Virus record (IMG/VR): IMGVR_UViG_3300045988_148900
Span: 70,552-134,551 of that record
Reading direction: 5' to 3' (one strand)
From: a virus
Length of the DNA: 64,000 bases
Within the stretch, counting starts at the first letter, position 1, and each line of letters starts with the position of its first letter. The translations under genes and the position numbers were made by a program. This document shows, piece after piece, positions 3,151-55,387 of the stretch. A model generated the notes under the pieces. The model did no database searches, was not told where the DNA came from, and saw nothing but the letters and a program-made list of their open reading frames with translations.

Positions 3151-4173
3151 CTACCTATTTCCAGACCGCGTGCTCACAGTACGCTCTATTAACGACCTAA
3201 GCAAAACTTCAACACCTACCTCCGACCCCAAAGCCTGCTGAGCCAAAGGAGAAAAGAAGAACCCAAACAGAGTCTTACCCAAACCTGCCTTCTGAAGCCG
3301 AAACTCAACAGAACCCTCATCAGTAGTAGCGTAAATATTACGCAACAACAAACCAACGGACATCCGAACATCTATAGTCGGATACAACAGCAACTCCGAA
3401 AGAAGAGACGACGGATCTGTACCCCCAGACTTCGAAAAGCAAGCAACAATGAAATCACGGAACTTGAAGTAAGAACTATCCAAAGCACGCGGACCCGCAA
3501 GCTCATAGAACTGAAGAAGCTGAAGAGCATTACGCATATGACCCTCCGACTTCATAGCCAAAATGTGAAGCTCGTCCGCAGACAACCGAGTACCACGACT
3601 CGCAGCGATCTTAGCAACATGAGCCTCAACCAACGGAAGAGGAATAGTACTAATGTCGATATTCACACACCGAGACTTCAAAGTAGGCGAAATATCCTCC
3701 GTACCACAAAACATGAAAATAGTATTAGGAACACCCTCCTCAACCGTCTTCAAAAGAGCATCACTACTACTACGAGAAATGGCCTGAACCTCGTCCAAGA
3801 CCACAACACGACGCCCTTCCGGCACTACCATAAGCTGCTCCTTAAGACGTCTAATCCCCTCAATATTGCCCACAACCGTACCATCAAGCTCCCAGTAAAG
3901 ACTCGAGTTGGACGCAGAAGCCTCCTGACACCCAGCACACGCATTACAAACGTCGTCCTTGTGCTTAAACTCCGTACAATTCATAGCTCTGCCAAAAATA
4001 CGAGCTATGCTTGACTTCCCTGAACCGAAGCTTCCCTTCAAAAACAAGGCCCGGGCTGCAATCCCGTCAGCATGGGCTATACGCTTCAGAGTCGTAACAG
4101 CCAAATCCTGACCAACCATCTCGCCAAAGGTCTTCGGCCTATACAAATTAGCTAAATTCTGATCCTGCGCCAT
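3151..4173 (-). CDS. clamp-loader AAA+ ATPase (DNA polymerase III gamma/tau, DnaX-like)
   Basis: LYRPKTFGEMVGQD, Walker A GSFGSGKSS, Cys cluster CNACAGC, Walker B VVVLDEV, sensor TLKSRC. Confidence 0.75.
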   Translation of the reverse strand: MAQDQNLANLYRPKTFGEMVGQDLAVTTLKRIAHADGIAARALFLKGSFGSGKSSIARIFGRAMNCTEFKHKDDVCNACAGCQEASASNSSLYWELDGTVVGNIEGIRRLKEQLMVVPEGRRVVVLDEVQAISRSSSDALLKTVEEGVPNTIFMFCGTEDISPTLKSRCVNIDISTIPLPLVEAHVAKIAASRGTRLSADELHILAMKSEGHMRNALQLLQFYELAGPRALDSSYFKFRDFIVACFSKSGGTDPSSLLSELLLYPTIDVRMSVGLLLRNIYATTDEGSVEFRLQKAGLGKTLFGFFFSPLAQQALGSEVGVEVLLRSLIERTVSTRSGNR

Positions 4174-6624: not shown

Positions 6625-9477
6625 CTACCGCATTGACGCTAAAAAAGACTTGCTAAGACACTCCTCGCACAACGTGAACCCTTTGCCGGAACCCACATCA
6701 AGCACTGCAGGACGGCCACAGCACTTACAAGAATGAAACTCACGAGAACGCAAGGTAGTAACGCAATCAACTGCAGTACCCCTAAAAAGCTTGTTCGGGT
6801 GAACACGCTTCGGACGTAAAACCGCCTGAATGTAATACCACGGATTACAACGCACCGGAATGACTAAGACACCCTTAGATCCTCCGCGACCGTCTGAGAC
6901 GACCAATGGGGCGGAAAGCGGCCCAGACCTCAACATATATGGCTTATACTTGTCTCCCTCCAAATGTAAGGTAGAACCGTCATACTTAGGAAGCACAAAA
7001 GACCAAACGTCCATAGGCAAATCCGACCGGAAAGAAAACAGATTCAAATCATCCAACGAAATTGGAATATCAGAAACATCATCTGAAACCCCAAGAACCT
7101 CAAAGGACACACTACGGGAATTTAACCCCTGAAAGAACTGACTAACAGCCGAAACATCATTATAAGACCGAAACTCCAAGTCCACAAGCTGGCTCCCGCC
7201 AACATCCCAATGACTATCCGGATAACTCTGACCATAAAGAGAATTAACCTGCGACACCCGAATAAAAGAATCACAAAGACCCTGATTACACCTTAAAAGA
7301 CTTGACGCAAAAAGATGCGACGTGGCGCGCGGATTTAGAATTCTGCCATAGGACGTCCTCTTTAATCTGAAACGCAGAATATGGGCCGCCTCTGGCTTCT
7401 TGTGGGCCTTTATATCGTCGGCGGAGATGGTCGAAGGCAAAGAACGACGAGACGCAAGACCCGAACGCCCGCAGGCATGGCAATCTGAAACACGAACACC
7501 CGGAGAACCTGAAAGAAAACCATCAGATCCTAACGAGACATCCGCAAACTGAAAGACCGGATTATTCGAAACCAAAAAAGACGAACAAACACCCCTACAC
7601 GAATCGGTGCGCAAACACCGAGGCATGCTGAAATCCGGAAAACCTGACGACGAAAGACCCTTACGCTCCTGATACCGACGAACGCCATCCAAGCTCGTAT
7701 GAACCCAATGCAACAACGATATGTAACCATTAAATGAACGCTTATCGAAGAAGCCTGACTCATCACTACCAATCATAGTACGAAGAGACTTAAAGAAAGG
7801 CAAGTCGCGTAAAGACCGCAGCTTATACAAGTTCGAACCCGACGCAACCTCCCGATGAAGCAACGGAGTCAGACGACGACCAAAGGACACCAAAGCCTGC
7901 TCAAGCAGCGTGCTATAACGATAACCATTAACCTCAAAGCGAACACCAAGCTCGTCCGTGAACCGAGAATACCACTCAGTCGAAATCCACTGACCGTCGT
8001 CAAAACTAAGACGAGCAGCGCGCTTCTCAATACACTCCAAAGGCGTCAACGGATACTGAACCAAAGGCGTAGCCTTAAACCGTATAGGTAACTTGCCCCC
8101 ACGACTTGCAGCATACGTAAGCCAACGCTTCGTGAAGCCATAAAGCCACTGCCAGTCCGACTCCTCCTCGTAACCCGAAAGAACAAGACCAATCTTAATA
8201 TCCAAGCAACCCCTATGAATCATGAAGCGCATATAAGACTCCAAAGCCTCCTCCGAAAGACCCTTATTATAAAGACTGTTCCATATCCGAGGACTAACAC
8301 CCTCAATAGGAGCCGTGCCGCGACGAAAACCTAAGGCGAAAAGAAGCTCCATAGCATCTTCATCCTTCCCAAGCTCCTCCATGCGCATATTGCTGAACGT
8401 AACCGTAGGAAACACATCCTGAACCTTAGCTACCGTGCCCTTCCAATCCGTCAAATAGTTGAGATTATAGGCGGCGAGCTTAACCGTATCCGACGCACTC
8501 CGAAGCTTAGCAACACGCGCCATAGAAACAATGGTATCCTGAGACTCCTCCTGTAAGCCACCCGCAAGATGACCCTCAGCACAGAAAGAACAGTTGCCCG
8601 CAAAACCACAACCCTCGGCGGCCGAAACCATAGCCAAATTGGTATTACCACCATTGCCGCGAATATAACCCGCAGCAGCCCCAAGCAAACCCTCAGGCTT
8701 GGACGAACCCAGACAGAAAGTAGCATGATCTGGAGCATCTGCACGAACACGACATGTAGACACAATCCTATTACCGCACCACTCAAAAGAATAAGACTGC
8801 GGCTGGTAAAAACAAAAAGAACCTTGACTATACCATAAGTAATTCAAATATTGATCCACCGTAGTAGTAGACCGTGGAAAAGAACCCATAGCGTCAAAAA
8901 GAAGCTTCTCGTCCCACGTCTGACCCAAATACATGAAGTCTAAGTAACTATAACGACCGTCACCAAGAGACCCAAACAAAACATCAGCATAAACAACAGA
9001 CGCACCTCCCGCATAAATAAGAGGAACATCGGTACGACCATTCCGCTCCGTGTACGACAACGGAATAGGCTTATCGCACCTGCTGAACGTAGCAAGCATC
9101 CACGGAACAACCGGAATCTCATAAAGACACGAAATACTAAAACCAACAATGTCAAAATGAGACGGATCGAGATGAGACGAAATACCAATAGCATAAGGAA
9201 CCTGCTCCTTATCATACCAGCGTATATCATCCCTATGCGGTAGAAACGCAAAGTCTATAAATACGCCCGGACAGCAAGTCTTAACCCAGTCGAGCAAGAC
9301 CGTAGGAGTCATCGAATGAGTCTTATCAAAAGACGACGACGGAAAGACTATAAGCAACTTCAGATTAGAAGCAGCATAAGCGTCCATAGACATCAGACCT
9401 GCATCCGGGTTGTAAAACTCACACCCGTCATGCAAGACTGACTTGTAACTCTCTATAAACCGCTCGCTACGTGTCAC
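6625..9477 (-). CDS. large B12-binding-domain/radical-SAM-like protein with C-terminal zinc ribbon
   Basis: N-terminal layout LLIVFPSS..DIVGFSISCLYE..PLIYAGGASV typical of B12-binding radical SAM enzymes; Cys cluster AEGCGFAGNCSFCAEG (8581-8610); C-terminal CKCCG..CEEC; GTG start overlaps upstream TGA. Confidence 0.45.
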   Translation of the reverse strand: MTRSERFIESYKSVLHDGCEFYNPDAGLMSMDAYAASNLKLLIVFPSSSFDKTHSMTPTVLLDWVKTCCPGVFIDFAFLPHRDDIRWYDKEQVPYAIGISSHLDPSHFDIVGFSISCLYEIPVVPWMLATFSRCDKPIPLSYTERNGRTDVPLIYAGGASVVYADVLFGSLGDGRYSYLDFMYLGQTWDEKLLFDAMGSFPRSTTTVDQYLNYLWYSQGSFCFYQPQSYSFEWCGNRIVSTCRVRADAPDHATFCLGSSKPEGLLGAAAGYIRGNGGNTNLAMVSAAEGCGFAGNCSFCAEGHLAGGLQEESQDTIVSMARVAKLRSASDTVKLAAYNLNYLTDWKGTVAKVQDVFPTVTFSNMRMEELGKDEDAMELLFALGFRRGTAPIEGVSPRIWNSLYNKGLSEEALESYMRFMIHRGCLDIKIGLVLSGYEEESDWQWLYGFTKRWLTYAASRGGKLPIRFKATPLVQYPLTPLECIEKRAARLSFDDGQWISTEWYSRFTDELGVRFEVNGYRYSTLLEQALVSFGRRLTPLLHREVASGSNLYKLRSLRDLPFFKSLRTMIGSDESGFFDKRSFNGYISLLHWVHTSLDGVRRYQERKGLSSSGFPDFSMPRCLRTDSCRGVCSSFLVSNNPVFQFADVSLGSDGFLSGSPGVRVSDCHACGRSGLASRRSLPSTISADDIKAHKKPEAAHILRFRLKRTSYGRILNPRATSHLFASSLLRCNQGLCDSFIRVSQVNSLYGQSYPDSHWDVGGSQLVDLEFRSYNDVSAVSQFFQGLNSRSVSFEVLGVSDDVSDIPISLDDLNLFSFRSDLPMDVWSFVLPKYDGSTLHLEGDKYKPYMLRSGPLSAPLVVSDGRGGSKGVLVIPVRCNPWYYIQAVLRPKRVHPNKLFRGTAVDCVTTLRSREFHSCKCCGRPAVLDVGSGKGFTLCEECLSKSFLASMR

Positions 9478-20252: not shown

Positions 20253-21383
20253 CTAAAGCCGCGGGATTCTTGACTCAGACATGGCCGCCACCGAGGTGGG
20301 CTTACTACCACTAATCAACGCGTCCATGCCCGAACGCCGAATGTTTAACGCTGCGTTGAGATCACGATCATGATGCGTTCCGCACTGCGGACAAAGCCAT
20401 GAACGGTCAACCAACCGAAGCTCTTTATTAACGTACCCGCATCCACTGCACAGCTTGCTACTCGCAAACCACTTATCGACATGCACAACGTTCGTGTTGT
20501 ACTTAGTAGCTACGAACTCCAAGCGCGACACGAATGATGCGTGGCTGAGATCCGAAACCTTACGGCCCCATAAGCGACGCATACCATCAAGGATCAACGT
20601 CTCCAAGCAGATCGTAGAATAACACTGACAAAGATCATGCGCTAAGCGCCACTGATAATCGTCACGATGGTTGCTGATCCCACGATAGAGCCTGCTGAGT
20701 TCAAGACGCCGACGGCGGTGGTTATTTGAGCCTTTGACGGATTGGCTCAACCGCCGATGCGCCTTACGGATATCACGAAGCGTCTGCTTAAAGAATTGAG
20801 GGTTCTCGTAACTGCGCCCGTCGGATAACGTCAAATACGTCTTCAAGCCAAAGTCAATGCCTACAACCGCACCATCATGTGTCGTGTTGCTGGATTCTAC
20901 CTTAGCGTCGGTTACGACGTACAACCAAAAGTCGCCGCACGGAGCACGCTTAACGCGAACCGTCTTTATCGCACCATCAAAATTACGGGATTTATGAAAT
21001 TTATAAGTCTTCTTAAGTCTGTTGATTGTGAAGCAATTGCCGTCTATCTTATACCCATAATGCAGCTTATAGGCAAAGGATTGAAAATCCGCGGCACATC
21101 GGAACTTAGGCGGCCGCTTGGCAAGCTTCTTGAAGAAACGTTGGTACGCAGCAGCAAGTCGCTGCAACACCTCAATGCTATTGTGTGAGTACAATAGATG
21201 CCGCTTGATGCGCTTTGTAAAATGCTTCTGCATGTCAACCGTTGAAACGTACTTGCCATACATACGGTAGTATCTACGTTGAAGCGCAAGTGCGTGGTTC
21301 CATACAAACGCACACTCCCGAAGCATCCGGTCCAACCATACGGTCCGATGTGTCTTGTAGAGTTTGTATTTGTATGTCAACAT
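20253..21383 (-). CDS. tnpB: TnpB (IS605 OrfB-family RNA-guided nuclease)
   Basis: YKYKLY start, GIDFGLK, zinc ribbon CSGCG..CPQCG, HDRDLNAALNI; distinct lineage from the 392-aa copies. Confidence 0.9.
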   Translation of the reverse strand: MLTYKYKLYKTHRTVWLDRMLRECAFVWNHALALQRRYYRMYGKYVSTVDMQKHFTKRIKRHLLYSHNSIEVLQRLAAAYQRFFKKLAKRPPKFRCAADFQSFAYKLHYGYKIDGNCFTINRLKKTYKFHKSRNFDGAIKTVRVKRAPCGDFWLYVVTDAKVESSNTTHDGAVVGIDFGLKTYLTLSDGRSYENPQFFKQTLRDIRKAHRRLSQSVKGSNNHRRRRLELSRLYRGISNHRDDYQWRLAHDLCQCYSTICLETLILDGMRRLWGRKVSDLSHASFVSRLEFVATKYNTNVVHVDKWFASSKLCSGCGYVNKELRLVDRSWLCPQCGTHHDRDLNAALNIRRSGMDALISGSKPTSVAAMSESRIPRL

Positions 21384-25867: not shown

Positions 25868-25909
25868 CCAGAAGCACTCAAAAACCAGAAGCACTCAAAA
25901 ACCAGAAGC
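25868..25909. repeat. 17-bp tandem repeat ccagaagcactcaaaaa, 2.5 units
   Basis: Two perfect units (25868-25884, 25885-25901) plus an 8-nt partial third. Confidence 0.85.
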
Positions 25910-26044: not shown

Positions 26045-27121
26045 TCATAGCTCCTGAATCACCCCGTCAGAATCTACCGGAATCTCTGGAGAGGAGACAA
26101 CTGACGTCATAGGGGAATATCCCGCAACGGACTCAGACGTGCCTCCCGTACGCATAAACTCATACAACCGAGAGACAGACTCCTTCGGCATGCCATAGAG
26201 CTTCTTCTGACCAACGTACTTCTCGTCCGCCCACGGCATAAAGTAAGAAACACCTGACTTCCGAATAACGCCTGACTCCAAGGCCATATCAATAACCGCG
26301 TAACGCTTGTCAACACCACGACCAAAAACCAGCTTCACCTTCTTCCGTACAAACGGCTTGCAAAACTTATTCTTCGTAGTCTCCATGTAAAGCTCAACAC
26401 CGAAAATCTCGTCAGGATTAGACGTCTCCGAACTCGGATCATCCTTCAACTTCGTACCAACGGAAAGCTTCGTAATAATGTCAGGGACGTGCTGAGCCGC
26501 AAATCCGCCCGCCTGACGCTCTTTCGGAGCGTAAGGGTTAGACATACCCATCTGAAGATTCGCACGCGCGTGAAACAGCCACAAAGACGAAATATTGGCA
26601 TCCGCAAACCAGTTCTTAATAGCAGGCAGCAAATTCGCCTCCTGAAGAGCCTTGACACCCGGACGGCAGTCCCGAACAGACAGATTCTTGTCCGAATAAG
26701 CGGCAACCTCCGACATACTATCAATAATAACCAAACGGAAACCCCCATCATCACTGAGAACCTTGCAAACGTCCTCAAGCTGACCATAATCACGAACCGT
26801 AAGATGGACCAATAAACCATCCATCTTAAACTTAGCCAAACCGAAAGCGGTAATCTGAGAGTCATTCCAAGCACGCTCCGTATCAATAATAGCAACCTTA
26901 TAACCCTGACGACAGAAGCTACGAGCGATCTGGGCCGATATGGAAGACTTGCCACAGCCCGCGACCCCCCATAAGCCCAGAGAATAACCTACTGGTACTC
27001 CACCACCCCAAATCTCATTCAAGGCATCAATCCCTGAATCAATAAAGGTATCAGGATTATCAACCCCATACTTCGCCAAAACATCCGACAAGGACAAACC
27101 TTCCTTCTCCTTTTTTGCCAT
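26045..27121 (-). CDS. RecA-superfamily ATPase (RecA/UvsX/RadA-like recombinase or DnaB/KaiC-like)
   Basis: ALNEIWGGGVPVGYSLGLWGVAGCGKSS Walker A context, Walker B LVIIDSMSE; strong terminator downstream. Confidence 0.6.
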   Translation of the reverse strand: MAKKEKEGLSLSDVLAKYGVDNPDTFIDSGIDALNEIWGGGVPVGYSLGLWGVAGCGKSSISAQIARSFCRQGYKVAIIDTERAWNDSQITAFGLAKFKMDGLLVHLTVRDYGQLEDVCKVLSDDGGFRLVIIDSMSEVAAYSDKNLSVRDCRPGVKALQEANLLPAIKNWFADANISSLWLFHARANLQMGMSNPYAPKERQAGGFAAQHVPDIITKLSVGTKLKDDPSSETSNPDEIFGVELYMETTKNKFCKPFVRKKVKLVFGRGVDKRYAVIDMALESGVIRKSGVSYFMPWADEKYVGQKKLYGMPKESVSRLYEFMRTGGTSESVAGYSPMTSVVSSPEIPVDSDGVIQEL

Positions 27122-40725: not shown

Positions 40726-42066
40726 CTACTCCCGAGGCAGACTCCGAAGATAGGTGGCATCATAAATGCACTCCGACGCCGCCTTATCATTGCGGAAACG
40801 AATTAACTGTGGATTACGCAAGTGATAATACTTATCTAACCCGCACCCCTGAAGCTCTGCCACCATACCCATAAACTCTGGATTAAGCCGAGCAACACCC
40901 GCGTCCAAAACAGTAGCACGCTGCGACAAATGACCACTCAAAGGCAGAACTGCAAACAGCTGAGAATGCTCTCTACCATCCTCGTCGCGGCAAACAATAC
41001 TAAGATCCAACTGTGTAATACAAGACGCAGGACCGGAGCCTCCAGAAACAAAGACATCAAAAGTATCATCAAGAACCTGTGGCGAGATGTCAGTACCAAT
41101 GCGATGCTTCAACTTAACCCACACATCCTTAGAACGAGAACCCTTAGAGTTATAAAAAGCATCCCCATTATGAAACACAACACCCTCACCACCCCGGTTG
41201 AGAATAGAATCCAAAAAGGAAATCTTCTCGAATCGAGACCCAAGCACGCGAGGAATAGCACGCGCATTGACACCCGCGCGACGCAACATGTCTACACAAG
41301 ACGAATAAGCATCCCAACCCTCATGAATAGGACGGTTGAGGTAATTACGACGCCCAAAATACAAAGGACAGATAACGTTGAAAGTCAACATGTCGCGCCC
41401 CAAATGCTCCCGAAACCAAACCTGACAACGACGCGCGTCATCAGGAGACATAGAAAGCAACTCGTCAATAACCCCATCCTCAGTGCCGCAATCAATACCA
41501 GCCGACTTTGCATCCTGTAAAGTGCCATTCAAGGTCAACTCAACGTCAACTGCAATGATAGTATCAGACGGAAAATTGTGATTGCTCCAAATCATAGGAG
41601 TGTAATCGATAATAGAACAGTCATCATTGATCCCACGACCAAAGATAAACCAATCCAACGAACCCCCCATCGTATAAGACATCAATAACGCCCGAACGCC
41701 CTTAATCTTCTCCGTAGCCAACCACGCGGTAGAATCAAGGACAACATTTCTATCCTCCTCCGAAAGATCACTAAACCGAGAACATAGACAGAAGCTATCA
41801 ATGCGCAAAGCATACCACACACACGGATGGACTATCTCCTTAATAGCTGACAAATCCAAGACCTGTAGGCAAACAGGCTTTGATACAGAGTAACCCTTCT
41901 GAATCAAAGCCTTCTCGAACTCCGCAAGATAACGCAAGGCGCGCTGATAATCCGCTATGACAACCTTCCCCCCACGACCCGACGGCTGAAGCAACGACGA
42001 CAAAAATGACGGCTGATATAAAGCCTGCTTAGACGCCCATAAACGCTCGTAATCTGCCTTGACCAT
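40726..42066 (-). CDS. ATP-dependent DNA/RNA ligase-like nucleotidyltransferase
   Basis: Motif I-like EKIKGVR, motif IV GGEGVVFH, motif V VWVKLKH. Confidence 0.5.
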   Translation of the reverse strand: MVKADYERLWASKQALYQPSFLSSLLQPSGRGGKVVIADYQRALRYLAEFEKALIQKGYSVSKPVCLQVLDLSAIKEIVHPCVWYALRIDSFCLCSRFSDLSEEDRNVVLDSTAWLATEKIKGVRALLMSYTMGGSLDWFIFGRGINDDCSIIDYTPMIWSNHNFPSDTIIAVDVELTLNGTLQDAKSAGIDCGTEDGVIDELLSMSPDDARRCQVWFREHLGRDMLTFNVICPLYFGRRNYLNRPIHEGWDAYSSCVDMLRRAGVNARAIPRVLGSRFEKISFLDSILNRGGEGVVFHNGDAFYNSKGSRSKDVWVKLKHRIGTDISPQVLDDTFDVFVSGGSGPASCITQLDLSIVCRDEDGREHSQLFAVLPLSGHLSQRATVLDAGVARLNPEFMGMVAELQGCGLDKYYHLRNPQLIRFRNDKAASECIYDATYLRSLPRE

Positions 42067-44285: not shown

Positions 44286-45548
44286 AGGTGATTATATACA
44301 ATTCTACACTGCATATATTGGCGTTTCACCGACTTCGTAACCTCCGTCTCCACGCCCCTCAAACCGCCCCACCGACGGCAGTATCTCCACTAAACCCGCA
44401 CGCAAAATGTTGATGGCGGCATTTAAGTCACGGTCGTGGACCGTACCACATTGTGGACACGTCCAAGATCGGTCCTTAAGTGTAAGACCATCGTTCTTAT
44501 AACCGCAACAACCACAAGTCTTGCTGCTCGGGAAGAAACGGTCGATCTTTAAAACCGTCTTACCAAGCCACCGCGCCTTGTAATCCAAGACACGAACAAA
44601 CTCGGACCAACAAATGTTTTGAATGGATTTAGCCAAACTGTGATTACCCATCATACCCTTAACATTCAAGTCCTCGATAAACACGGCTTGGTTCTCACCC
44701 AGTATCGAGTTGACTGTATGATGGATAAAGTTATTAATCAAATTACGTTTCTTAGCATATAACTTATTGATTTTAAGTCTTATCTCCGCACGGCGTCTAC
44801 TGCCTTTCTGGCGGCGGGACTCGATCTTCTGCAGACGCGATATGCGGCGATCTATAACATCCGCGAAACGCGGATTAGGTATCTTACGTCCATCGGATGT
44901 AACTATGAAGTCCTTCAACCCCAAGTCAAGACCAACGCACTTAGACTGGCTTGTGATAGGCGCGGGTTTAAGCTCAAGAACACCCGTCTCCACAAGACAA
45001 CTAACCCAATAACGTCCGCAACCATCGCAGCTCACCGTGATGTTACGTAACTGCCCTTTGAACCGACGATCTTGCTTATATTTAATCAAACCGATTTTCG
45101 GCAATTTAATGTGACGCGTTTCTTGGTCTACAGAGCAGAAGGGAACCGAAAATCTACACGATAATTTACTACGATGTTTGGACTTAAACTTTGGGTAACC
45201 CTGCTTGATCTTAAAGAATTGCTGATAAGCACTATCCATGTCATAGACTGCCTGCGGCAGACATACATGCGGAACAACACGCAACCACTCATGCTCTTCC
45301 TTAAGACCTGTAATTAACTTGATGCAGTCGAACTTAGACAACGTCGTCTTATCCGCCTCATATGCCTTTATCTTAGCAGCAAGTGTGGCGTTATAAATGA
45401 ACCGACAACAATCGAACGACTGACGCAACATCGCCTCCTGCGTCTTGTTCGGATAAAGTCGGTATTTATAGGCACGCTTCATGATGCTAATATAGTTGTT
45501 TATTTACGTCTATGCAAGCTGTTAGTGCAAAATTGTATGTAATCACCT
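44286..45548 (-). mobile_element. 1263-bp tnpB-only insertion element, copy B, with TIRs and 6-bp TSD
   Basis: Left end identical to copy A; TIRs 44286-44312 and 45522-45548 (22/27); direct repeats ACATGT at 44280-44285 and 45549-45554. Confidence 0.85.
44304..45482 (-). CDS. tnpB: TnpB (IS605 OrfB-family RNA-guided nuclease)
   Basis: 392 aa, collinear with copy A with many substitutions; all RuvC and zinc-ribbon motifs intact. Confidence 0.93.
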   Translation of the reverse strand: MKRAYKYRLYPNKTQEAMLRQSFDCCRFIYNATLAAKIKAYEADKTTLSKFDCIKLITGLKEEHEWLRVVPHVCLPQAVYDMDSAYQQFFKIKQGYPKFKSKHRSKLSCRFSVPFCSVDQETRHIKLPKIGLIKYKQDRRFKGQLRNITVSCDGCGRYWVSCLVETGVLELKPAPITSQSKCVGLDLGLKDFIVTSDGRKIPNPRFADVIDRRISRLQKIESRRQKGSRRRAEIRLKINKLYAKKRNLINNFIHHTVNSILGENQAVFIEDLNVKGMMGNHSLAKSIQNICWSEFVRVLDYKARWLGKTVLKIDRFFPSSKTCGCCGYKNDGLTLKDRSWTCPQCGTVHDRDLNAAINILRAGLVEILPSVGRFEGRGDGGYEVGETPIYAV

Positions 45549-49030: not shown

Positions 49031-49612
49031 CTAAAAGTTAACACCCACATTAAGAGTCCAAGCATACTTATCATCGAACCGAATGCCTCCCAGACCCACC
49101 TTATACTTCTGCCGGAAATCCAAGCCCACAAAGCCTGTCTGTGTCCGGAAATCCAAACTCGTGCCCACCATAACCCACGGCGTAAGCAACCGAGGCTTGG
49201 AAACAACCTCACGGACAGTCATAACCTCCTTAAATAAAGGAACAATGTCTGCCGACGCTGCCTGAATCTCATTCTCGGAAACAACACACCGAACCTTAAA
49301 AGTCCCCGTCGTATCTGTACTGAAGTCCAACTCATAATGATATCGAGCAAAGTACTTCGACAAGACGGCAACGGTGTCAACCGGAACATAGACGGGAACA
49401 CCAACCGTATCAACCCGCAAAGGACTGCCCTTATCAATGAAAACCGGAGTCGGCTTGTCGAAAGTAATCTTCACAGGAACACCCGGAAGATACTTCACGA
49501 CCGTAGACTCCGTAACACTTACTGAACGAACCCCAAGATAGTAACCACTACCAAAAAGTAGGGCTAAACCCAGAAGCACGCAGACAAACTCCCATATATT
49601 ACTACGTTTCAT
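49031..49612 (-). CDS. secreted/outer-membrane beta-barrel-like protein
   Basis: N-terminal signal/anchor WEFVCVLLGLALLFG; alternating beta pattern and C-terminal ..WTLNVGVNF with terminal Phe, as in OMPs. Confidence 0.3.
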   Translation of the reverse strand: MKRSNIWEFVCVLLGLALLFGSGYYLGVRSVSVTESTVVKYLPGVPVKITFDKPTPVFIDKGSPLRVDTVGVPVYVPVDTVAVLSKYFARYHYELDFSTDTTGTFKVRCVVSENEIQAASADIVPLFKEVMTVREVVSKPRLLTPWVMVGTSLDFRTQTGFVGLDFRQKYKVGLGGIRFDDKYAWTLNVGVNF

Positions 49613-49643
49613 GTAGTAAGTAAACGTAAACTACAACACTAAA

Positions 49644-49886
49644 TTACACCATCAACCTCAAACCACCCTCTGTCATACCTAAAGCGTACTCTCTGGCTTC
49701 GATATCAGATAACCCAGAAGCAATAGCAGAATCAAACCACCCCCAGAAATACTCCTGAATTTCAGGACTCCAAGACATAATACACTTATCAATACAATCC
49801 ATATACATGAGATTAAAAACAAGACCCGAAACTCCCAAGACAGAAGAATCAGGTCCTGAATAATATGACAATAAAAGGCTACTCAA
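49644..49886 (-). CDS. hypothetical small protein
   Basis: TTG start overlapping the upstream stop; no nearby ATG. Confidence 0.3.
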   Translation of the reverse strand: MSSLLLSYYSGPDSSVLGVSGLVFNLMYMDCIDKCIMSWSPEIQEYFWGWFDSAIASGLSDIEAREYALGMTEGGLRLMV

Positions 49887-50418
49887 AAGTCATAACCAAA
49901 GGCTCCGGATACCCAACAGTAAAATTATAAGATTGAACCGCCGTGACATCCTTCAAAGCCTTGATGGTTATCTCATGCTTACGAGTAACACCGTAAGTGG
50001 CCATAGCATACGCCTCCAGCTTAGACAGGAAGTCTTTAAGCTGAACACACGTAAGTATGACTTGAGAACCATCGAAGCCATAGAGTGTAAACTCAACATC
50101 ATCAGCTGAGTCCTGAGCCTGCAGCCGGAACAAAGACCGAGACGACTTACCAAGCCAAAGATTAACCCCATTAACACTACAAGTGTTTACCTCCTCGCTA
50201 CTATCATAAGCATAGAGACCCGCAAGGGCTACCGCCTTTGCATCCTCTAAGATAATTACCGGATCACGAAGAACAGGACGACCATCCTCATCCTCTACAA
50301 TCTCCTTACCTTTAGACTGACCATCCAACAGCGACTGCCACTCCTCATCCGTAAGCTCTATGCCATTTTTAATCTTGACGTCGTAAAAACCACCGTCGCC
50401 TTTCTTCCACCACATCAT
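49879..50418 (-). CDS. DUF4376-like protein (tail-fibre-associated)
   Basis: ..VNGVNLWLGKSSRSLF....LEAYAMATYGVTRKHE..L..V..YNFTVGYPE matches my recollection of the DUF4376 pattern next to fibre genes. Confidence 0.35.
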   Translation of the reverse strand: MMWWKKGDGGFYDVKIKNGIELTDEEWQSLLDGQSKGKEIVEDEDGRPVLRDPVIILEDAKAVALAGLYAYDSSEEVNTCSVNGVNLWLGKSSRSLFRLQAQDSADDVEFTLYGFDGSQVILTCVQLKDFLSKLEAYAMATYGVTRKHEITIKALKDVTAVQSYNFTVGYPEPLVMTFE

Positions 50419-50457
50419 AACTATGTAAATTTTTTAACAATCACCCTGTATTAACGT

Positions 50458-50676
50458 CTATGCTATTCCTAACTTCGTCTTCAGCTGAGCAATAAAGTCT
50501 ACATCCTCAAGCAACTCGTCAGCCGACTTTACCCCGATATTTGTACGAGCCTGTTGCTTTTGAACATCTGTTAGATCTTGACTTACATTATATCTTACAG
50601 AATCAAAATGCAAGTCTGTGGCACTAACAGCTGTGAACTGTTTAGTACTTATATTATAGGAAAATTGACTAACCAA
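50458..50676 (-). CDS. orphan tail-fibre module without ATG, out of frame with the fibre gene
   Basis: Contains the fibre module signature VRYNVSQDLTDVQKQQARTNIGV; only a TTG start; becomes in frame if one ATAAT unit at 50702-50719 is lost. Confidence 0.4.
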   Translation of the reverse strand: MVSQFSYNISTKQFTAVSATDLHFDSVRYNVSQDLTDVQKQQARTNIGVKSADELLEDVDFIAQLKTKLGIA

Positions 50677-50701
50677 ACTAACACCACTCCAAGCATTAAA
50701 G

Positions 50702-50719
50702 TATATTATATTATATTAT
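50702..50719. repeat. pentanucleotide microsatellite (ATAAT)x3.6 spanning the tail-fibre stop codon
   Basis: Minus strand reads TCTAAT-AATAT-AATAT-AATAT-ACTTT; the TAA stop lies inside it. Confidence 0.8.
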
Positions 50720-53700
50720 TAGAATAGACTGATTTAAGAAATACAGAAGCTTTTGAATAACTCTCAGGAGTATTGGTTAAAACTATACCATTGGCATTCT
50801 CAACAACGGCAGCCGTAGAATCATCCAAAATCGTACCCAGTAAAGAATAATCTACCTGTACGAAGTCTAAACCTATATTAGATAAGACCGTATTTTTTTG
50901 AGTATCAGTAAGATTCTGACCTTCACTATACCTTACAACATCAGTAGCATAACCAGCCGAAATCAAAGAAAGTTTTTTGCTGGTATGAGATAAAGTCAGA
51001 ACAAACCAAACTCTTGCGTTAAACTCGCTGACAAAAGTAGTAGTAACAGTATTAGAACTACCCACAAAATACAAAGATGGCGCATTATTTCCATCCGGGA
51101 CGTTCTCTAAAAACACACCTTTAGCGGTCAGTAACTTATTATAAGTACTATCATCCAACGTAGAGCCAATCAGTGAATAGTCTACGTGCACCAAAGGAAG
51201 CCCGATATTAGACAGGGCCATGTCTTTTTGAGTATTGGTTAGATTCTGATTCAAATTACTTACTACTAACTTTGATGTCTGAACTAAGCTAAGTGTCTTA
51301 TTCGGAATGTTCAAAACAAAATAATTTATATCCTGAAAATTCTCGATAGAAGAAAAAGTAATAGTACTGACTAATTTTGACCCAACAGTAAATACTACTG
51401 AGCGTATGTAATCATCAGGAGTATTAGTCAAGATAATCCCTTTGGCATTTACAAGCTGAGACAGTCTATCGTCGGATAAAGTAGTCGCTAATTCAGAGTA
51501 ATCTACAATGACAAAATCAAGACCTATATTAGACAAAGCCGTATCCTGCTGCGATGTGGTTAAATTCTGAACCTCGGCGTATCTTACCGAACCTCCATAA
51601 GTTAAACCGGAACTTAGACCTGACAATAATTTTGTAGACTTGTTAAGTGCGAATATAGAATACGTATTTCCCGTAACAAAGCTTACGAAGATACAAGACC
51701 CAGATGTATTATTGCCTTTAATGAAAACCGTCGGATTCCTGTAATCGGATGGTGTATCAACTAAAACAATACCTCGGGCATTATCAACAACTGCAAGCAT
51801 CTCGTCCGACAGTGTAGTACCCAAAAGAGAGTACGGAATTCTAACAAGATCAATACCTATGTTGCCCAAGGCTTTATTCTTATTATCATCAGAAACACTA
51901 CTCTGATCACGATCAAAAGAAACCGCACTCGGATCGTATAAGTATGCGAAACTCGAAGTAATAACCCCGGTCGCCTCATTGACATTCAAAGCCGTACAGA
52001 AACTGTTGCTGAACTGTCCGTAAAAACGACGGCTACCACCTGACGTGATAGAAAAATTATAGAGTAAGCCTGTCTCCTGCACCAATAAGGCGGTGGCCGA
52101 AAGACGTGCGGCTTTCTCATCGTCCGAAACAGCATCCGAGGAACCAATAGCAGACTCCGAGATCACATGAACCTTCCAACCTAAATTCTCGAACGCCTGT
52201 GATTGTTGTGCACCCGACAAAGAAGTAAGACGATCAAACCTGAGGGCTCCTGGATCATTTAAAAACAAATTACCATTAAAAACAAATGTTTTCGACGCCT
52301 TCTTATAGGAACAATATAAAGCCAAAGTATTAGACCACAGGCTATAAAAAATAGGCTCGGGTACACTCGCAAAATTGGAAGATGTGAAAATATGATTATC
52401 TGCATTATATATACCCACGCCAGTATTAGTACCATCAACAGTCAGTAAAACAGCAGCTCCTGCCAGTAACTTAGCATCCTCCTCATCCGTGAGAACGACA
52501 GACGTTGCACCCTCCGGGAATTTTAATACAACCAAGTCTAAACCTAAGTTTGACCAAGCCTGCTCCTGCTGCGCACTCGTCAAAGCTGGATTTTGGACGG
52601 TAAAATGCAAGCTCAAAGCATCTTGAAAATTGTAGCTATTAAGAGCAGACACCACGCCCGTAGATCGTGTAATAGATAGTATCGCAATAATAGAATTAGA
52701 CACAGAACGAGTGAAAGTAATCCTATTCGAATCTAAAGTCCCCAATAAAAACAAATCCCCCGTATCAGTAAACAGAAGAACCTTAGAAGCAGCTACCTGT
52801 TCTATTTCCTCCGCCGATAAAGTAGACCCTAAAAAGCTACTATCCGTAACATAGACCTTCATGCCTAAGTTGGCAAACGCCTGTGCCTGTTCAGTAGCAG
52901 ACAGAGTCTGCATTTTTATAGATACCGCATTAGGATCTATGAAACTTGCCGAAGTAAGAAAACGAAATAGTTTAGTGGACTTAGTGTAAATACACTGTAA
53001 AATATATCTGTTGTTTCTTACTGCCCAAAAACTTACTTGATCCCCTCCTTGATAGTCACTAAAATATATTTTAGTAAGTACCTCTTTGCCCGCAGCTACC
53101 GTGCCACGCAAGATAACTCCTTTACACGACAACAATCTATCCTCCTGATCATCGGTAAGTGTCGCCTGACCATTGACAAGATCGATAATCATCAGGTCAG
53201 CACCTATATTTTCCAATGCTTGATTCTGAGCCGAAAGACTCAAAGACTGGGCAATATCCGTCCTAACCACCTTCGAGGCAAAATCAGCAGACGTGACATG
53301 ATCATTGATGCGCGCCTGAAGATCAACAGAAAGACAATCCCAGTCAATGGAATTCTTAAGAACCGTGGCATGGATGACATTATTCTCGTCTATAGAAATC
53401 TGAATCCGATCGCCAATAGAACCAACATATTCCTTGACAAAGGCACTAACCGGAATACTCGTGGTAGTACCATCAGCATTATCAAACTCAATGCTCTCGG
53501 TCTCTGCGTTATAACGTAAGGCCAGCTGCTCGATAGGCAAGTCAATCTCTACAGACGCACCAGCAAGAGTCGTGAACGTAATCTTATAAGACGACGAATC
53601 GTAAGCCGGAAGACCTACACAAGTATTAAGCAACTCGCGAATGTCAGCATGAGAAGTAGACGACGTATTATGAATAGATATGCTCTCCGTAACAGACTCC

Positions 53701-54428
53701 AAAGACGCCTTCTTACTCAACTCCTCCGTAACAGACGCCTGTGACATGATAAGATTAGAACTATTACCAGTCGTATCTACAACAGCATCAACACCAACCT
53801 TCTGGAGAAGCTCCTCAGTAACGGCATTCTGAGACAGGACAGCAGTAGTACTGTTACCCGGACCCTGAACAATCTCAAAAATATCAACCTGATCTGCAAT
53901 ATACTGCTTGAGGTTATCCGTAGTGACAAAACCACTCAGAAAATCTATAACCTCAGGAAGCGTGTCGATGCTCAAATCAGGAACTGCCGTAAACGAGTCA
54001 ATAGTATAATCAAGATTCTGTGACAGCTCCGTGGAATTGAACGTCTTATACTTCATCTCCCCAATAGCCCCAACCTGAGAAATAAAGAGTAAGTCCTTCT
54101 CGTAAAGATAAGACACCGTAAGCAAGATAGGATAATATCCGGCAGCCCGCAAGGACAAAACCAAAATGCTATTCTCCTGCCCAAGAACGACTGACAAATA
54201 AAAAGCATCTGAAACCCCCGAAGCCATAGGCTCCGAGTCTACAACACCATCTACGCTCCGATAAACATCATACATGACAGAACTGCCAAACGACTGACAT
54301 ATACGAAGTAATACCGACTTCTCCTGAAAGGACAATGAAAGTGATTGGGCTGTAGAAGCAACTAAACCCGCAACGGCACTCATCTGAGCAACAGGACTCT
54401 CCAAGGGACGATAAGTTACAAGAGACAT
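50706..54428 (-). CDS. modular tail fibre protein
   Basis: Eight modules of about 100 aa, each with Q.L(T/S)..Q...A..N(I/L)G motif; ATG at 54428, 20 nt below the promoter word. Confidence 0.7.
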   Translation of the reverse strand: MSLVTYRPLESPVAQMSAVAGLVASTAQSLSLSFQEKSVLLRICQSFGSSVMYDVYRSVDGVVDSEPMASGVSDAFYLSVVLGQENSILVLSLRAAGYYPILLTVSYLYEKDLLFISQVGAIGEMKYKTFNSTELSQNLDYTIDSFTAVPDLSIDTLPEVIDFLSGFVTTDNLKQYIADQVDIFEIVQGPGNSTTAVLSQNAVTEELLQKVGVDAVVDTTGNSSNLIMSQASVTEELSKKASLESVTESISIHNTSSTSHADIRELLNTCVGLPAYDSSSYKITFTTLAGASVEIDLPIEQLALRYNAETESIEFDNADGTTTSIPVSAFVKEYVGSIGDRIQISIDENNVIHATVLKNSIDWDCLSVDLQARINDHVTSADFASKVVRTDIAQSLSLSAQNQALENIGADLMIIDLVNGQATLTDDQEDRLLSCKGVILRGTVAAGKEVLTKIYFSDYQGGDQVSFWAVRNNRYILQCIYTKSTKLFRFLTSASFIDPNAVSIKMQTLSATEQAQAFANLGMKVYVTDSSFLGSTLSAEEIEQVAASKVLLFTDTGDLFLLGTLDSNRITFTRSVSNSIIAILSITRSTGVVSALNSYNFQDALSLHFTVQNPALTSAQQEQAWSNLGLDLVVLKFPEGATSVVLTDEEDAKLLAGAAVLLTVDGTNTGVGIYNADNHIFTSSNFASVPEPIFYSLWSNTLALYCSYKKASKTFVFNGNLFLNDPGALRFDRLTSLSGAQQSQAFENLGWKVHVISESAIGSSDAVSDDEKAARLSATALLVQETGLLYNFSITSGGSRRFYGQFSNSFCTALNVNEATGVITSSFAYLYDPSAVSFDRDQSSVSDDNKNKALGNIGIDLVRIPYSLLGTTLSDEMLAVVDNARGIVLVDTPSDYRNPTVFIKGNNTSGSCIFVSFVTGNTYSIFALNKSTKLLSGLSSGLTYGGSVRYAEVQNLTTSQQDTALSNIGLDFVIVDYSELATTLSDDRLSQLVNAKGIILTNTPDDYIRSVVFTVGSKLVSTITFSSIENFQDINYFVLNIPNKTLSLVQTSKLVVSNLNQNLTNTQKDMALSNIGLPLVHVDYSLIGSTLDDSTYNKLLTAKGVFLENVPDGNNAPSLYFVGSSNTVTTTFVSEFNARVWFVLTLSHTSKKLSLISAGYATDVVRYSEGQNLTDTQKNTVLSNIGLDFVQVDYSLLGTILDDSTAAVVENANGIVLTNTPESYSKASVFLKSVYSNNII

Positions 54429-54448
54429 GCGCAACACAATTATTTAAC

Positions 54449-54461
54449 GGATATATAATTG
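54449..54461 (-). promoter_or_regulatory. phage-specific promoter word, extended CAATTATATATCCGTTAAAT
   Basis: Exact; 20 nt above the tail-fibre ATG 54428; terminator 54495-54523 upstream. Confidence 0.6.
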
Positions 54462-54494
54462 CTACCCCACCCTACAGACATTAAAACATAACTA

Positions 54495-54523
54495 ACAAAA
54501 GCAGACCACATTAAAGTGATCTG
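54495..54523 (-). terminator. rho-independent terminator
   Basis: CAGATCAC-TTTAAT-GTGGTCTG (one G-U) then CTTTTGTT. Confidence 0.55.
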
Positions 54524-54537
54524 TAACTCCTACGTAA

Positions 54538-54792
54538 CTAACTCTCCTGTCGCATCCGTCGAAGAACTTCCTGCCACTCGCAATCCATGTCGCGCCAATA
54601 GGTATAACCCTCCGGAGTCATACAAAACTGAAAGGCCTCGAGAATGTAAAAAGGAGGCCGACTGACCGGATCACAAACATAGGAATGAAAAGACTGACGA
54701 CCCAAATTAAACGTGAACTTCTCGAAAGCTCCTCGATCCTTCAGAAAGGACTCAAATGCAATAACAAATCTGTTGTTAACAAGCATGACCAT
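54538..54792 (-). CDS. hypothetical small protein (paralog of 63219..63482)
   Basis: Shares F.F..TPEG..(Y/F)W....CEW(Q/E)(E/D).LR with the other copy. Confidence 0.5.
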   Translation of the reverse strand: MVMLVNNRFVIAFESFLKDRGAFEKFTFNLGRQSFHSYVCDPVSRPPFYILEAFQFCMTPEGYTYWRDMDCEWQEVLRRMRQES

Positions 54793-54916
54793 TAATAGCT
54801 AACCCAAGTGAATGTCAACAAAAAGCATCGGCGTGAAGACAGTATTAAACAAATAAGCAATATCCTAACAGTGAGCCGACTCGACAACTCGGATGATACG
54901 TAAAACTCTAAAATGC

Positions 54917-55387
54917 CTACTCAACGTGAATTTGAATCCCACGACCAGAATCCCACGTAGACTTCAAAAGAGAGTACAACTTCTTAAACGTCTCACTGCT
55001 CTGCATGACTGCACCTACAACCGTATTGCGACCCACAAGAATACAACCATCCGTATCCTCCGGATAATTGCCGATATGAATGAGAATGCCCTCAAAGCCC
55101 GGAACCCCTACCAAACGTGGCAAGTAACCATCACAGAACGAATACTGAGCACGCTGAGAATACTTAGGTGACTTAACGTTCAATGTGACAGAATAAGTAC
55201 CACGAGGAATAGCTGTCTTACCATAAACCTTCTTCGAAGCAATCTCCGACTCTGACATGTCAGCGGTAAGACCCCTATCCACATCCTCCATCGTGTCGCA
55301 GAAAAACTCACCATCGACATACAATTTCCCGATGGTATACTTCGGTCCCTTAAAATGCCGATCCAAAAACAAATGCAAGTCTTCCAT
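54917..55387 (-). CDS. DUF5675-like protein (possible cell-wall-active enzyme)
   Basis: ..IPRGTYSV......LPRLVGVPGFEGILIHIGNYPEDTDGCILVG resembles the DUF5675 / YkuD-like H.G....GC signature. Confidence 0.4.
   Translation of the reverse strand: MEDLHLFLDRHFKGPKYTIGKLYVDGEFFCDTMEDVDRGLTADMSESEIASKKVYGKTAIPRGTYSVTLNVKSPKYSQRAQYSFCDGYLPRLVGVPGFEGILIHIGNYPEDTDGCILVGRNTVVGAVMQSSETFKKLYSLLKSTWDSGRGIQIHVE

Follow-up and report, generated by a model that had tools for sequence, protein, structure and literature searches.

Duplication of one pentanucleotide unit probably truncates a modular tail-fibre gene in one strain of gut phage

The window analysed here is a 64,000-nucleotide (nt) stretch of DNA from an uncultured human-gut phage, positions 70,552 to 134,551 of IMG/VR record IMGVR_UViG_3300045988_148900. 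Its tail-fibre gene, on the minus strand, stops inside a short pentanucleotide repeat, and the sequence that would complete the protein continues past the stop in the -1 frame. The probable explanation is a recent slipped-strand duplication of a single ATAAT unit, leaving a truncated and probably impaired allele and not an evolved switch. The features at the break are as follows.

Positions 50706-54428, minus strand: truncated tail-fibre coding sequence, 1240 amino acids (aa) plus the premature TAA; the exact product is called on two public contigs.
Positions 50702-50719, minus strand: pentanucleotide tract (ATAAT)x3.6, from Tandem Repeats Finder, one unit above the in-frame alleles.
Positions 50706-50708, minus strand: premature TAA, a frameshift product; in-frame alleles have ATA TAC (Ile-Tyr) there.
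Positions 50458-50715, minus strand: -1-frame remnant of 85 codons plus TAG, coding for the rest of the last repeat module (module 8) and the C-terminal tail.
Positions 50674-50676, minus strand: TTG, the earliest start-like codon of the remnant frame, an internal Leu codon in intact alleles.

The final codons of the fibre open reading frame (ORF) read ..TCT AAT AAT ATA ATA TAA, with the stop at 50708-50706. A first-pass annotation, made from the letters of the window, had placed this stop inside (ATAAT)x3.6, and both the sequence and Tandem Repeats Finder, which reports a period-5 tract of 3.6 copies at 100% match, confirm it. Tract length was compared with chance in 200 second-order Markov simulations of the 64-kb window. 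None of the 200 simulations produced a perfect period-5 tract of 18 nt or more, and the window has one, whereas tracts of 13 nt, the length found in the in-frame alleles, are expected 1.5 times per 64 kb and were observed twice. The ATA ATA pair is unremarkable as a codon choice, 16-27% of Ile codons being ATA.

Downstream of the stop, the remnant frame is open from 50715 to a TAG at 50460-50458 and has no in-frame ATG, in agreement with the first-pass description of an ATG-less ORF in the -1 frame. Gene callers have placed a 72-aa ORF there from the TTG at 50676 (P0121 and P0124, the latter being the JGI spelling of the ORF). The remnant peptide matches the fibre itself in BLASTP searches, at residues 924-970 (expectation value, E, 2e-6) and at residues 1149-1187 (E 1e-5), the second match being the segment quoted in the first-pass annotation. 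The resemblance to a fibre module that had been proposed there is therefore real, but the alignment covers a module end and the inter-module motif, not a module start. In silico removal of one 5-nt unit gives a single ORF of 1321 aa, 81 residues longer than the truncated product, much as predicted (about 80). The same fusion exists naturally as protein P0126, whose end is identical to the remnant protein sequence. In the fused ORF the eighth and ninth N[IL]G motifs are 111 aa apart, the other modules being spaced 107-121 aa, and this last spacing is obtained in the fused reading only.

Evidence that the uninterrupted gene came first is provided by comparison of the tract strings at 11 loci. 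A 13-nt tract, reading TCTAATAATATAATATACTTT, is present in five contigs from four sequence backgrounds (L022, L023, L018, L019 and L026), and the corresponding uninterrupted proteins are P0126 (1321 aa; L022 and L023), P0001 (L018), P0003 (L019) and P0128 (1184 aa; L026). The 18-nt tract, reading TCTAATAATATAATATAATATACTTT, is that of the window and of three public contigs, L012, L020 and L021. TCTAATAATATAATATAATATACTTT differs from TCTAATAATATAATATACTTT by a clean 5 nt and by nothing else, and alignments of the window against L002, L018 and L019 also show a clean 5-nt gap at the tract. P0126, from two Logan contigs, matches the joined pieces of the window exactly over at least ~270 C-terminal residues. 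The diverged relatives L002 and L024 are likewise in frame and of equal length across the junction, where they read GCT GAT ATA ATA TAC, and P0132 and P0133 have a non-repeat 'SNDLIY' at the tract position. Every relative outside the split clone is single-frame. Since even the diverged L002 and L024 are in frame, the intact fibre is ancestral, and the window allele carries a one-unit tandem duplication. The first-pass annotation had suggested comparing fused and split versions among related phages, and had named an independent downstream gene as the observation that would speak against it. The two ORFs are fused in five contigs and split in one clonal strain, no separate conserved gene occupies the site in any relative, and intact alleles read the TTG as an internal Leu. 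Because the two ORFs are joined in relatives that lack one 5-nt unit, they are one gene split by a single repeat unit, and the split is of slipped-strand origin.

The split state comes from k119_214615, k119_100736 and scaffold_155 of SAMEA3182062 (three ENA analyses) and from JGI/IMG records, in genomes of ~134.5 kb. The four split contigs, including the window, are 100% identical over 5.8-10 kb with no single-nucleotide polymorphism (SNP), the exception being an N run in L020. This identity indicates one strain, possibly from one host, and on the sequences compared the split state is confined to that clonal strain. A second break in the L020 fibre (1045 + 182 + 72 aa) was examined and set aside as the product of the scaffolding N run, not of mutation. 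The window and L022 are ~97% identical overall. Between ~48500 and 51319 the 5-nt unit and one SNP are their sole differences; elsewhere they differ by ~3%. This near-identity over 2.8 kb indicates that the event is very recent. The remnant frame carries no substitutions relative to L022, but the event is too recent for decay to have set in, so the intact remnant frame carries no weight on selection either way. Within the 90% protein cluster (seven members), no in-frame version of the window's own strain was found. An exact-flank, variable-gap scan of a viral contig collection returned the L002 contig alone, the same scan of a genome contig collection returned nothing, and a protein-based scan of metagenome contigs returned diverged relatives only, which indicates that those collections do not hold the window's strain.

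An artefact, with the extra 5 nt introduced by sequencing or assembly and absent from the phage DNA, is the least credible account of the split. The tract is low-complexity AT sequence, the split contigs all belong to one strain, and the samples may be related. Against this, the 18-nt tract recurs in the three ENA analyses, whose contig naming suggests different assembly pipelines, as well as in the JGI/IMG records, and the occurrence of one tract under two contig naming styles (two k119_, one scaffold_) argues against an assembly error. The neighbouring genes are intact: for the split contigs L012 and L020, all 12 of the 12 neighbours listed keep their product length in L022, and the fibre alone is broken. 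Tandem insertions of 5 nt are not known to be a typical short-read consensus error.

The consequences of the truncation depend on what the missing residues do. The full fibre consists of a ~400-aa N-terminal region, eight modules of ~110 aa and a 27-aa tail, laid out in the window as follows.

Positions 53211-54428, minus strand: N-terminal ~400 aa; aa 1 to ~185 are specific to the phage group and aa 185-400 are shared with the crAss-like phage cr108_1.
Positions 50880-53210, minus strand: modules 1-7, ~107-121 aa each, bounded by Q-x-L-T-x-x-Q-x-x-A-x-x-N-[IL]-G motifs.
Positions 50542-50879, minus strand: module 8, the final ~110-aa repeat, delimited by N[IL]G motifs eight and nine; the frameshift falls 57 residues in.
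Positions 50461-50541, minus strand: conserved C-terminal tail NIGVKSADELLEDVDFIAQLKTKLGIA, 27 aa, with two predicted helices; missing from the truncated product.

The start codon is most likely the ATG at 54428 (MSLV.., 1240 aa, as in the public assemblies) and not the GTG at 54437, and the first ~185 aa presumably anchor the fibre to the virion. In the fused reading the nine N-[IL]-G motifs lie at aa 407, 520, 627, 748, 856, 967, 1074, 1184 and 1295, each preceded by Q-x-L-T-x-x-Q-x-x-A. An alignment of 56 homologues places the tail among the best-conserved parts of the family: 15 of its positions, between Val291 and Leu311 in P0001 numbering, reach at least 90% conservation, following the pattern V.SA.ELL.D.DFIA.LKTKL, and the adjoining A-R-x-N-I-G motif has several invariant positions. 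The piece beyond the stop had been described in the first-pass annotation as an extra C-terminal module. It instead supplies the 54 residues that the last module still lacks, followed by a tail that is present on almost all homologues.

A structural view of the break was obtained from an AlphaFold2 monomer model of P0001, a homologue with a near-identical last module, built with the 56-homologue alignment. The mean predicted local-distance difference test (pLDDT) score is 74, rising to ~90 in the last module. The modelled module consists of a helix, a strand, a helix and a strand, then four strands, and the tail helices span residues 294-299 and 301-311. The window's stop maps within the beta-strand at residues 232-239, and on this model the short product would miss three strands of the last module, the linker helix and the tail. 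The suggestion that the locus yields two fibre tips does not fit this picture, in which the short product is left with a broken domain at its end. Sequence searches of the fibre against Pfam, PHROGs and PDB gave no match. A Foldseek search of the model against PDB gave no significant match either (best E 3.7e-3 at a template-modelling (TM) score of 0.15), and its top, non-significant matches were the receptor-binding proteins of phages 80alpha and phi11.

The gene that follows the fibre suggests a possible role for the tail.

Positions 49879-50418, minus strand: tail-fibre-assembly (chaperone)-like gene, 179 aa, matching phrog_188 'tail fiber assembly protein' at E 2.3e-10.

It begins 39 nt past the ancestral fibre stop and also adjoins the fibre gene in L002, L015, L022 and L026. 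This phrog_188 neighbour supports the assignment of the 1240-aa gene as a tail fibre. Assembly chaperones of tail fibres work on the distal, C-terminal part of the fibre (PMC9608196), and two fibres with an alternative tail, P0002 and P0030, lack an assembly-protein gene. The alternative C-terminal ending, ..NIDAVGSSGIKGVEIVYSTAPMQQDNILYIELEETT, stands in place of the SADELL..KTKLGIA tail in P0002, P0030 and P0129 and in L024 (134-1323) and L025 (768-1585). The next gene after these alternative-ending fibres encodes 93 aa and is not the 179-aa assembly-like gene; cr108_1 has a matching arrangement, with a 93-aa gene behind a fibre-like gene.

Taken together, these comparisons favour the following course of events. 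Slipped-strand mispairing during replication of one phage lineage would have duplicated one ATAAT unit at a 13-nt, AT-only tract (AAT AAT ATA ATA TAC) in the last fibre module, a tract whose length is at chance level. The duplication shifts the frame by +5, creates the TAA and removes 81 residues, comprising half of module 8 together with the conserved helical tail at the C-terminus. The short product would then end in an unfoldable half-domain, deprived of a tail that may serve chaperone-assisted assembly. A stop inside a beta-strand, loss of the conserved tail and the distal action of chaperones all suggest that the distal end of the fibre is probably impaired or altered in the split strain. 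The ancestral fibre stop is TAG, as in 29 of the 42 long ORFs of the window, and the premature stop is TAA. The 18-nt tract may slip back, and revertants would be expected in large populations, although the sequences compared give no indication that the site evolved as a switch.

Several points weigh against this reading. The split strain has been assembled at least three to four times as a ~134.5-kb genome, so the truncation does not kill the phage. Its effect could be neutral or adaptive, or could be offset by reversion, recoding or reinitiation. The argument for impairment is built on a monomer AlphaFold2 model and on conservation. L003 has the same tail and no assembly-protein gene beside its fibre gene, which makes the link between tail and assembly gene suggestive only. 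Moreover, the data are consensus contigs, and low-frequency heterogeneity in repeat number is possible within the strain.

One rival reading takes the ATAAT tract to be a contingency locus, that is, a hypermutable repeat toggling the fibre between ON (1321 aa) and OFF (1240 aa) and generating mixed distal-end phenotypes in the population. The unit is not a multiple of three and lies within the reading frame, in-frame (five contigs) and out-of-frame (four, including the window) repeat numbers are both natural, and one pair of phages differs over 2.8 kb almost solely by the indel. The 18-nt tract exceeds any chance tract, and reversible repeat frameshifts are known in T2 and T4 (10.1101/2025.10.21.683753) and in Campylobacter phages. 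The ON tract, however, has 2.6 units (13 nt), a chance length, and is identical in four backgrounds whose flanks diverge from the window by 0, 3.3, 5.1 and 7.3%; L002 and L024 (GCT GAT ATA ATA) and P0132 and P0133 ('SNDLIY') carry non-repeat codons instead. The OFF state occurs in a single clone, identically in 4/4 assemblies, the two states were never found within one strain, and no allele of 1.6 or 4.6 units appears among the loci compared. Known pentanucleotide phase-variable loci, such as the CTCTT repeats of Neisseria opa, have many more units. An invariant tract of chance length, with no other unit numbers and no in-frame sibling, argues against an evolved hypermutable tract, and phase variation is considered unlikely. 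It is rather doubtful, too, that the site is a working reversible slippage switch, perhaps aided by +5/+2 hopping at AUA-UAA, that toggles the distal module and tail and gives two adsorption phenotypes per strain.

The remaining alternatives would recover some of the lost sequence during translation. Besides slippage in replication, which the 13-nt and 18-nt alleles bear out, the first-pass annotation had considered a -1 frameshift site, and here the evidence is negative. Direct reading of ..TCT AAT AAT ATA ATA TAA finds no X XXY YYZ slippery heptamer. RNA folding of the 141 nt at 50730-50590, an interval covering the stop and the following ~115 nt, gives z = +0.31, with 118/200 shuffles folding at least as well, and an Rfam search of 49500-55000 found no match. 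Without a heptamer, a fold or a conserved two-frame layout, a programmed -1 frameshift is not supported. A different form of recoding would be a shifty stop, with AUA in the P-site and UAA in the A-site, at which tRNA-Ile re-pairs on an AUA 2 or 5 nt downstream and some full-length fibre is made. The take-off ATA (50711-50709) and the TAA (50708-50706) are followed by landing ATA codons at 50709-50707 (+2) and 50706-50704 (+5), both in the remnant frame; a +5 hop would give the exact P0126 sequence and a +2 shift one extra Ile. Low-level +2, +5 and +6 shifts at stops were reportedly described by Weiss and co-workers in 1987, and the take-off codon of the T4 gene 60 bypass is next to a stop. 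Yet the arrangement is a by-product of the duplication and absent from all relatives, so it cannot be an evolved site. It also lacks the canonical -1 heptamer, significant RNA structure and an Rfam match, and without stimulators its efficiency is expected to be ~1% or less. Low-level hopping at AUA-UAA is conceivable as an incidental event, but the shifty stop is a very improbable source of functional fibre.

Reinitiation at TTG 50676, 30 nt past the TAA, could alternatively yield a 72-aa fragment that complements the fibre in trans, with ~9 residues missing. A start-like codon does lie close to the stop, gene callers report the ORF, and the fragment would hold whole predicted secondary-structure elements and the tail. 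The TTG, however, is an ordinary internal Leu codon in intact alleles, the break falls inside a beta-strand, and neither a promoter-like site on the coding strand nor a separate conserved gene in any relative marks the position. A promoter scan of 50200-51000 gave one promoter-like match, on the opposite (+) strand and at a frequency not above shuffles, and a terminator scan of the same interval gave one terminator-like hairpin, inside the next gene. A split gene of this kind is highly improbable, and the favoured reading remains a recent duplication that disrupted one gene.

The wider fibre family is variable in length and composition. Fibres of 170 aa (L015), 878 aa (L002), 992, 1184 and 1321 aa occur among relatives. 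The 170-aa form of L015 (3635-4147) consists of the N-terminal 78 aa fused in frame with the final part of the last module and the tail; that so short a form still keeps the tail suggests that the tail matters. Whole ~110-aa modules have been gained or lost at the Q-x-L-T-x-x-Q..N-I-G motif (L002 4144-6780; P0004, P0123 and P0128), and P0004 equals the window fibre minus module 8. The N-terminal region varies between phages and the central and distal parts are shared, with P0129 and P0132 carrying other N-termini on the same central segment. The fibre thus appears to be accessory and very plastic, and its truncation tolerated.

Some of this variation reaches beyond close relatives. The crAss-like phage cr108_1 (L001, MT774385; 6663-8780) shares segments with window positions ~51559-52199 and 53229-53876, with 89.5% nucleotide identity to the fibre over 640 nt and, in tblastn, 88.9% amino acid identity over residues 185-400. 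A window ORF of 446 aa (40729-42066) had no tblastn match in the phage collection. The shared fibre segments and the unmatched 446-aa ORF point to horizontal exchange of fibre segments between unrelated gut phages.

Mobile-element genes are also present. Two IS200/IS605-type TnpB-like genes lie on the minus strand of the window at 44304-45482 and 20253-21383 (phrog_506, E 3e-124 and 1e-87). TnpB-like genes in relatives stand directly beside the fibre and assembly genes (L002 2659-3849; L015 4864-6441), and in P0032 a TnpB N-terminus is fused in frame to the last fibre module, by insertion or chimeric assembly.

Other features of the window concern its general organization. All long ORFs are on the minus strand, and guanine-cytosine (GC) skew is uniformly negative over the 64 kb. 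Stop codons of the 42 long ORFs are used in unusual proportions (TAG 29, TGA 7, TAA 6). Reassignment of a stop codon was considered and rejected, TAA ending six other long ORFs and TAG ending 29 with normal gene spacing. The top Tandem Repeats Finder score of the window (84) belongs to a perfect 17-nt tandem repeat at 25868-25909, CCAGAAGCACTCAAAAA in 2.5 copies. Among the replication and other genes of the window, one encodes a RecA-like ATPase (PF00154, E 3e-12), another a clamp-loader-like protein (PF13177, E 2e-19), and a third a 950-aa protein whose N-terminal radical S-adenosylmethionine (SAM) match is weak and below the Pfam cutoff; the three loci, given jointly, are 6625-9477, 26045-27121 and 3151-4173.

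The significance of the site lies first in its clarity, as a clean natural slippage frameshift caught just after the event, together with an intact parent allele that is otherwise near-identical over 2.8 kb. For annotation, the 1240-aa and 72-aa ORFs are to be treated as one disrupted gene. The natural truncation could reveal the role of the conserved tail in a widespread, uncharacterised family of modular gut-phage fibres, and the tract is a concrete site bearing on whether non-homopolymer repeats act as phage contingency loci. If high-rate switching did occur here, the range of phage contingency loci would grow beyond homopolymers to take in pentanucleotides, and would reach the gut virome; for the first time, a receptor-binding fibre of a gut phage would be shown to vary in phase through a pentanucleotide repeat.

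Known systems resemble the locus in different respects. Cyanophage Pam3 gp24-gp25 is a fibre with its cognate assembly chaperone (PMC9608196), and host-recognition modules are shared between phages (PMC10579305). Like the mosaic fibres of the Mu/P2 Tfa type, the fibre described here has a phage-specific N-terminus, exchangeable distal modules and a phrog_188 gene directly downstream, as well as segments in common with an unrelated crAss-like phage. It departs from those fibres in its shaft of up to eight ~110-aa alpha/beta modules with the Q-x-L-T-x-x-Q..N-I-G motif, which have no Pfam, PHROG or PDB match.

The mechanism class, repeat-driven reversible frameshift in phages, is already known. 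Homopolymers in T2 agt and T4 rIIA revert 1,000-10,000 times as often as SNP mutants and show read-level heterogeneity (Gomez, Barrick and Waters 2025, 10.1101/2025.10.21.683753). Frameshifts at polyG tracts are also reported for receptor-binding genes of Campylobacter Fletchervirus (Sorensen et al. 2021, Cell Rep 35:109214, cited in PMC10877375). As in these phage contingency loci, an intragenic simple repeat, here in a fibre gene, toggles the frame through a change in length, and both states are natural. Those loci, however, are homopolymers of at least 6-9 nt, whereas the in-frame tract here has 2.6 pentanucleotide units and is invariant across lineages. The Neisseria opa CTCTT repeat is likewise a pentanucleotide in coding sequence whose unit number sets the frame. 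Loci of the opa type have many units and vary between sibling cells, whereas the tract here, at 2.6 or 3.6 units, is stable in all sampled lineages. T4 gene 60 and shifty stops share the stop right after the take-off codon and identical landing codons in the productive frame, but the present site has no conserved stimulator and no counterpart in relatives, and would have arisen accidentally by duplication. Frameshifts of the Streisinger type, caused by slippage at short repeats, are classically represented by the T4 rII and lysozyme hotspots. As in that type, a whole repeat unit would have been gained in replication, giving a frameshift and a nearby stop that loss of the unit could revert; here, however, the repeat is a pentanucleotide in a natural gut phage, and both alleles come from metagenomes rather than from laboratory crosses.

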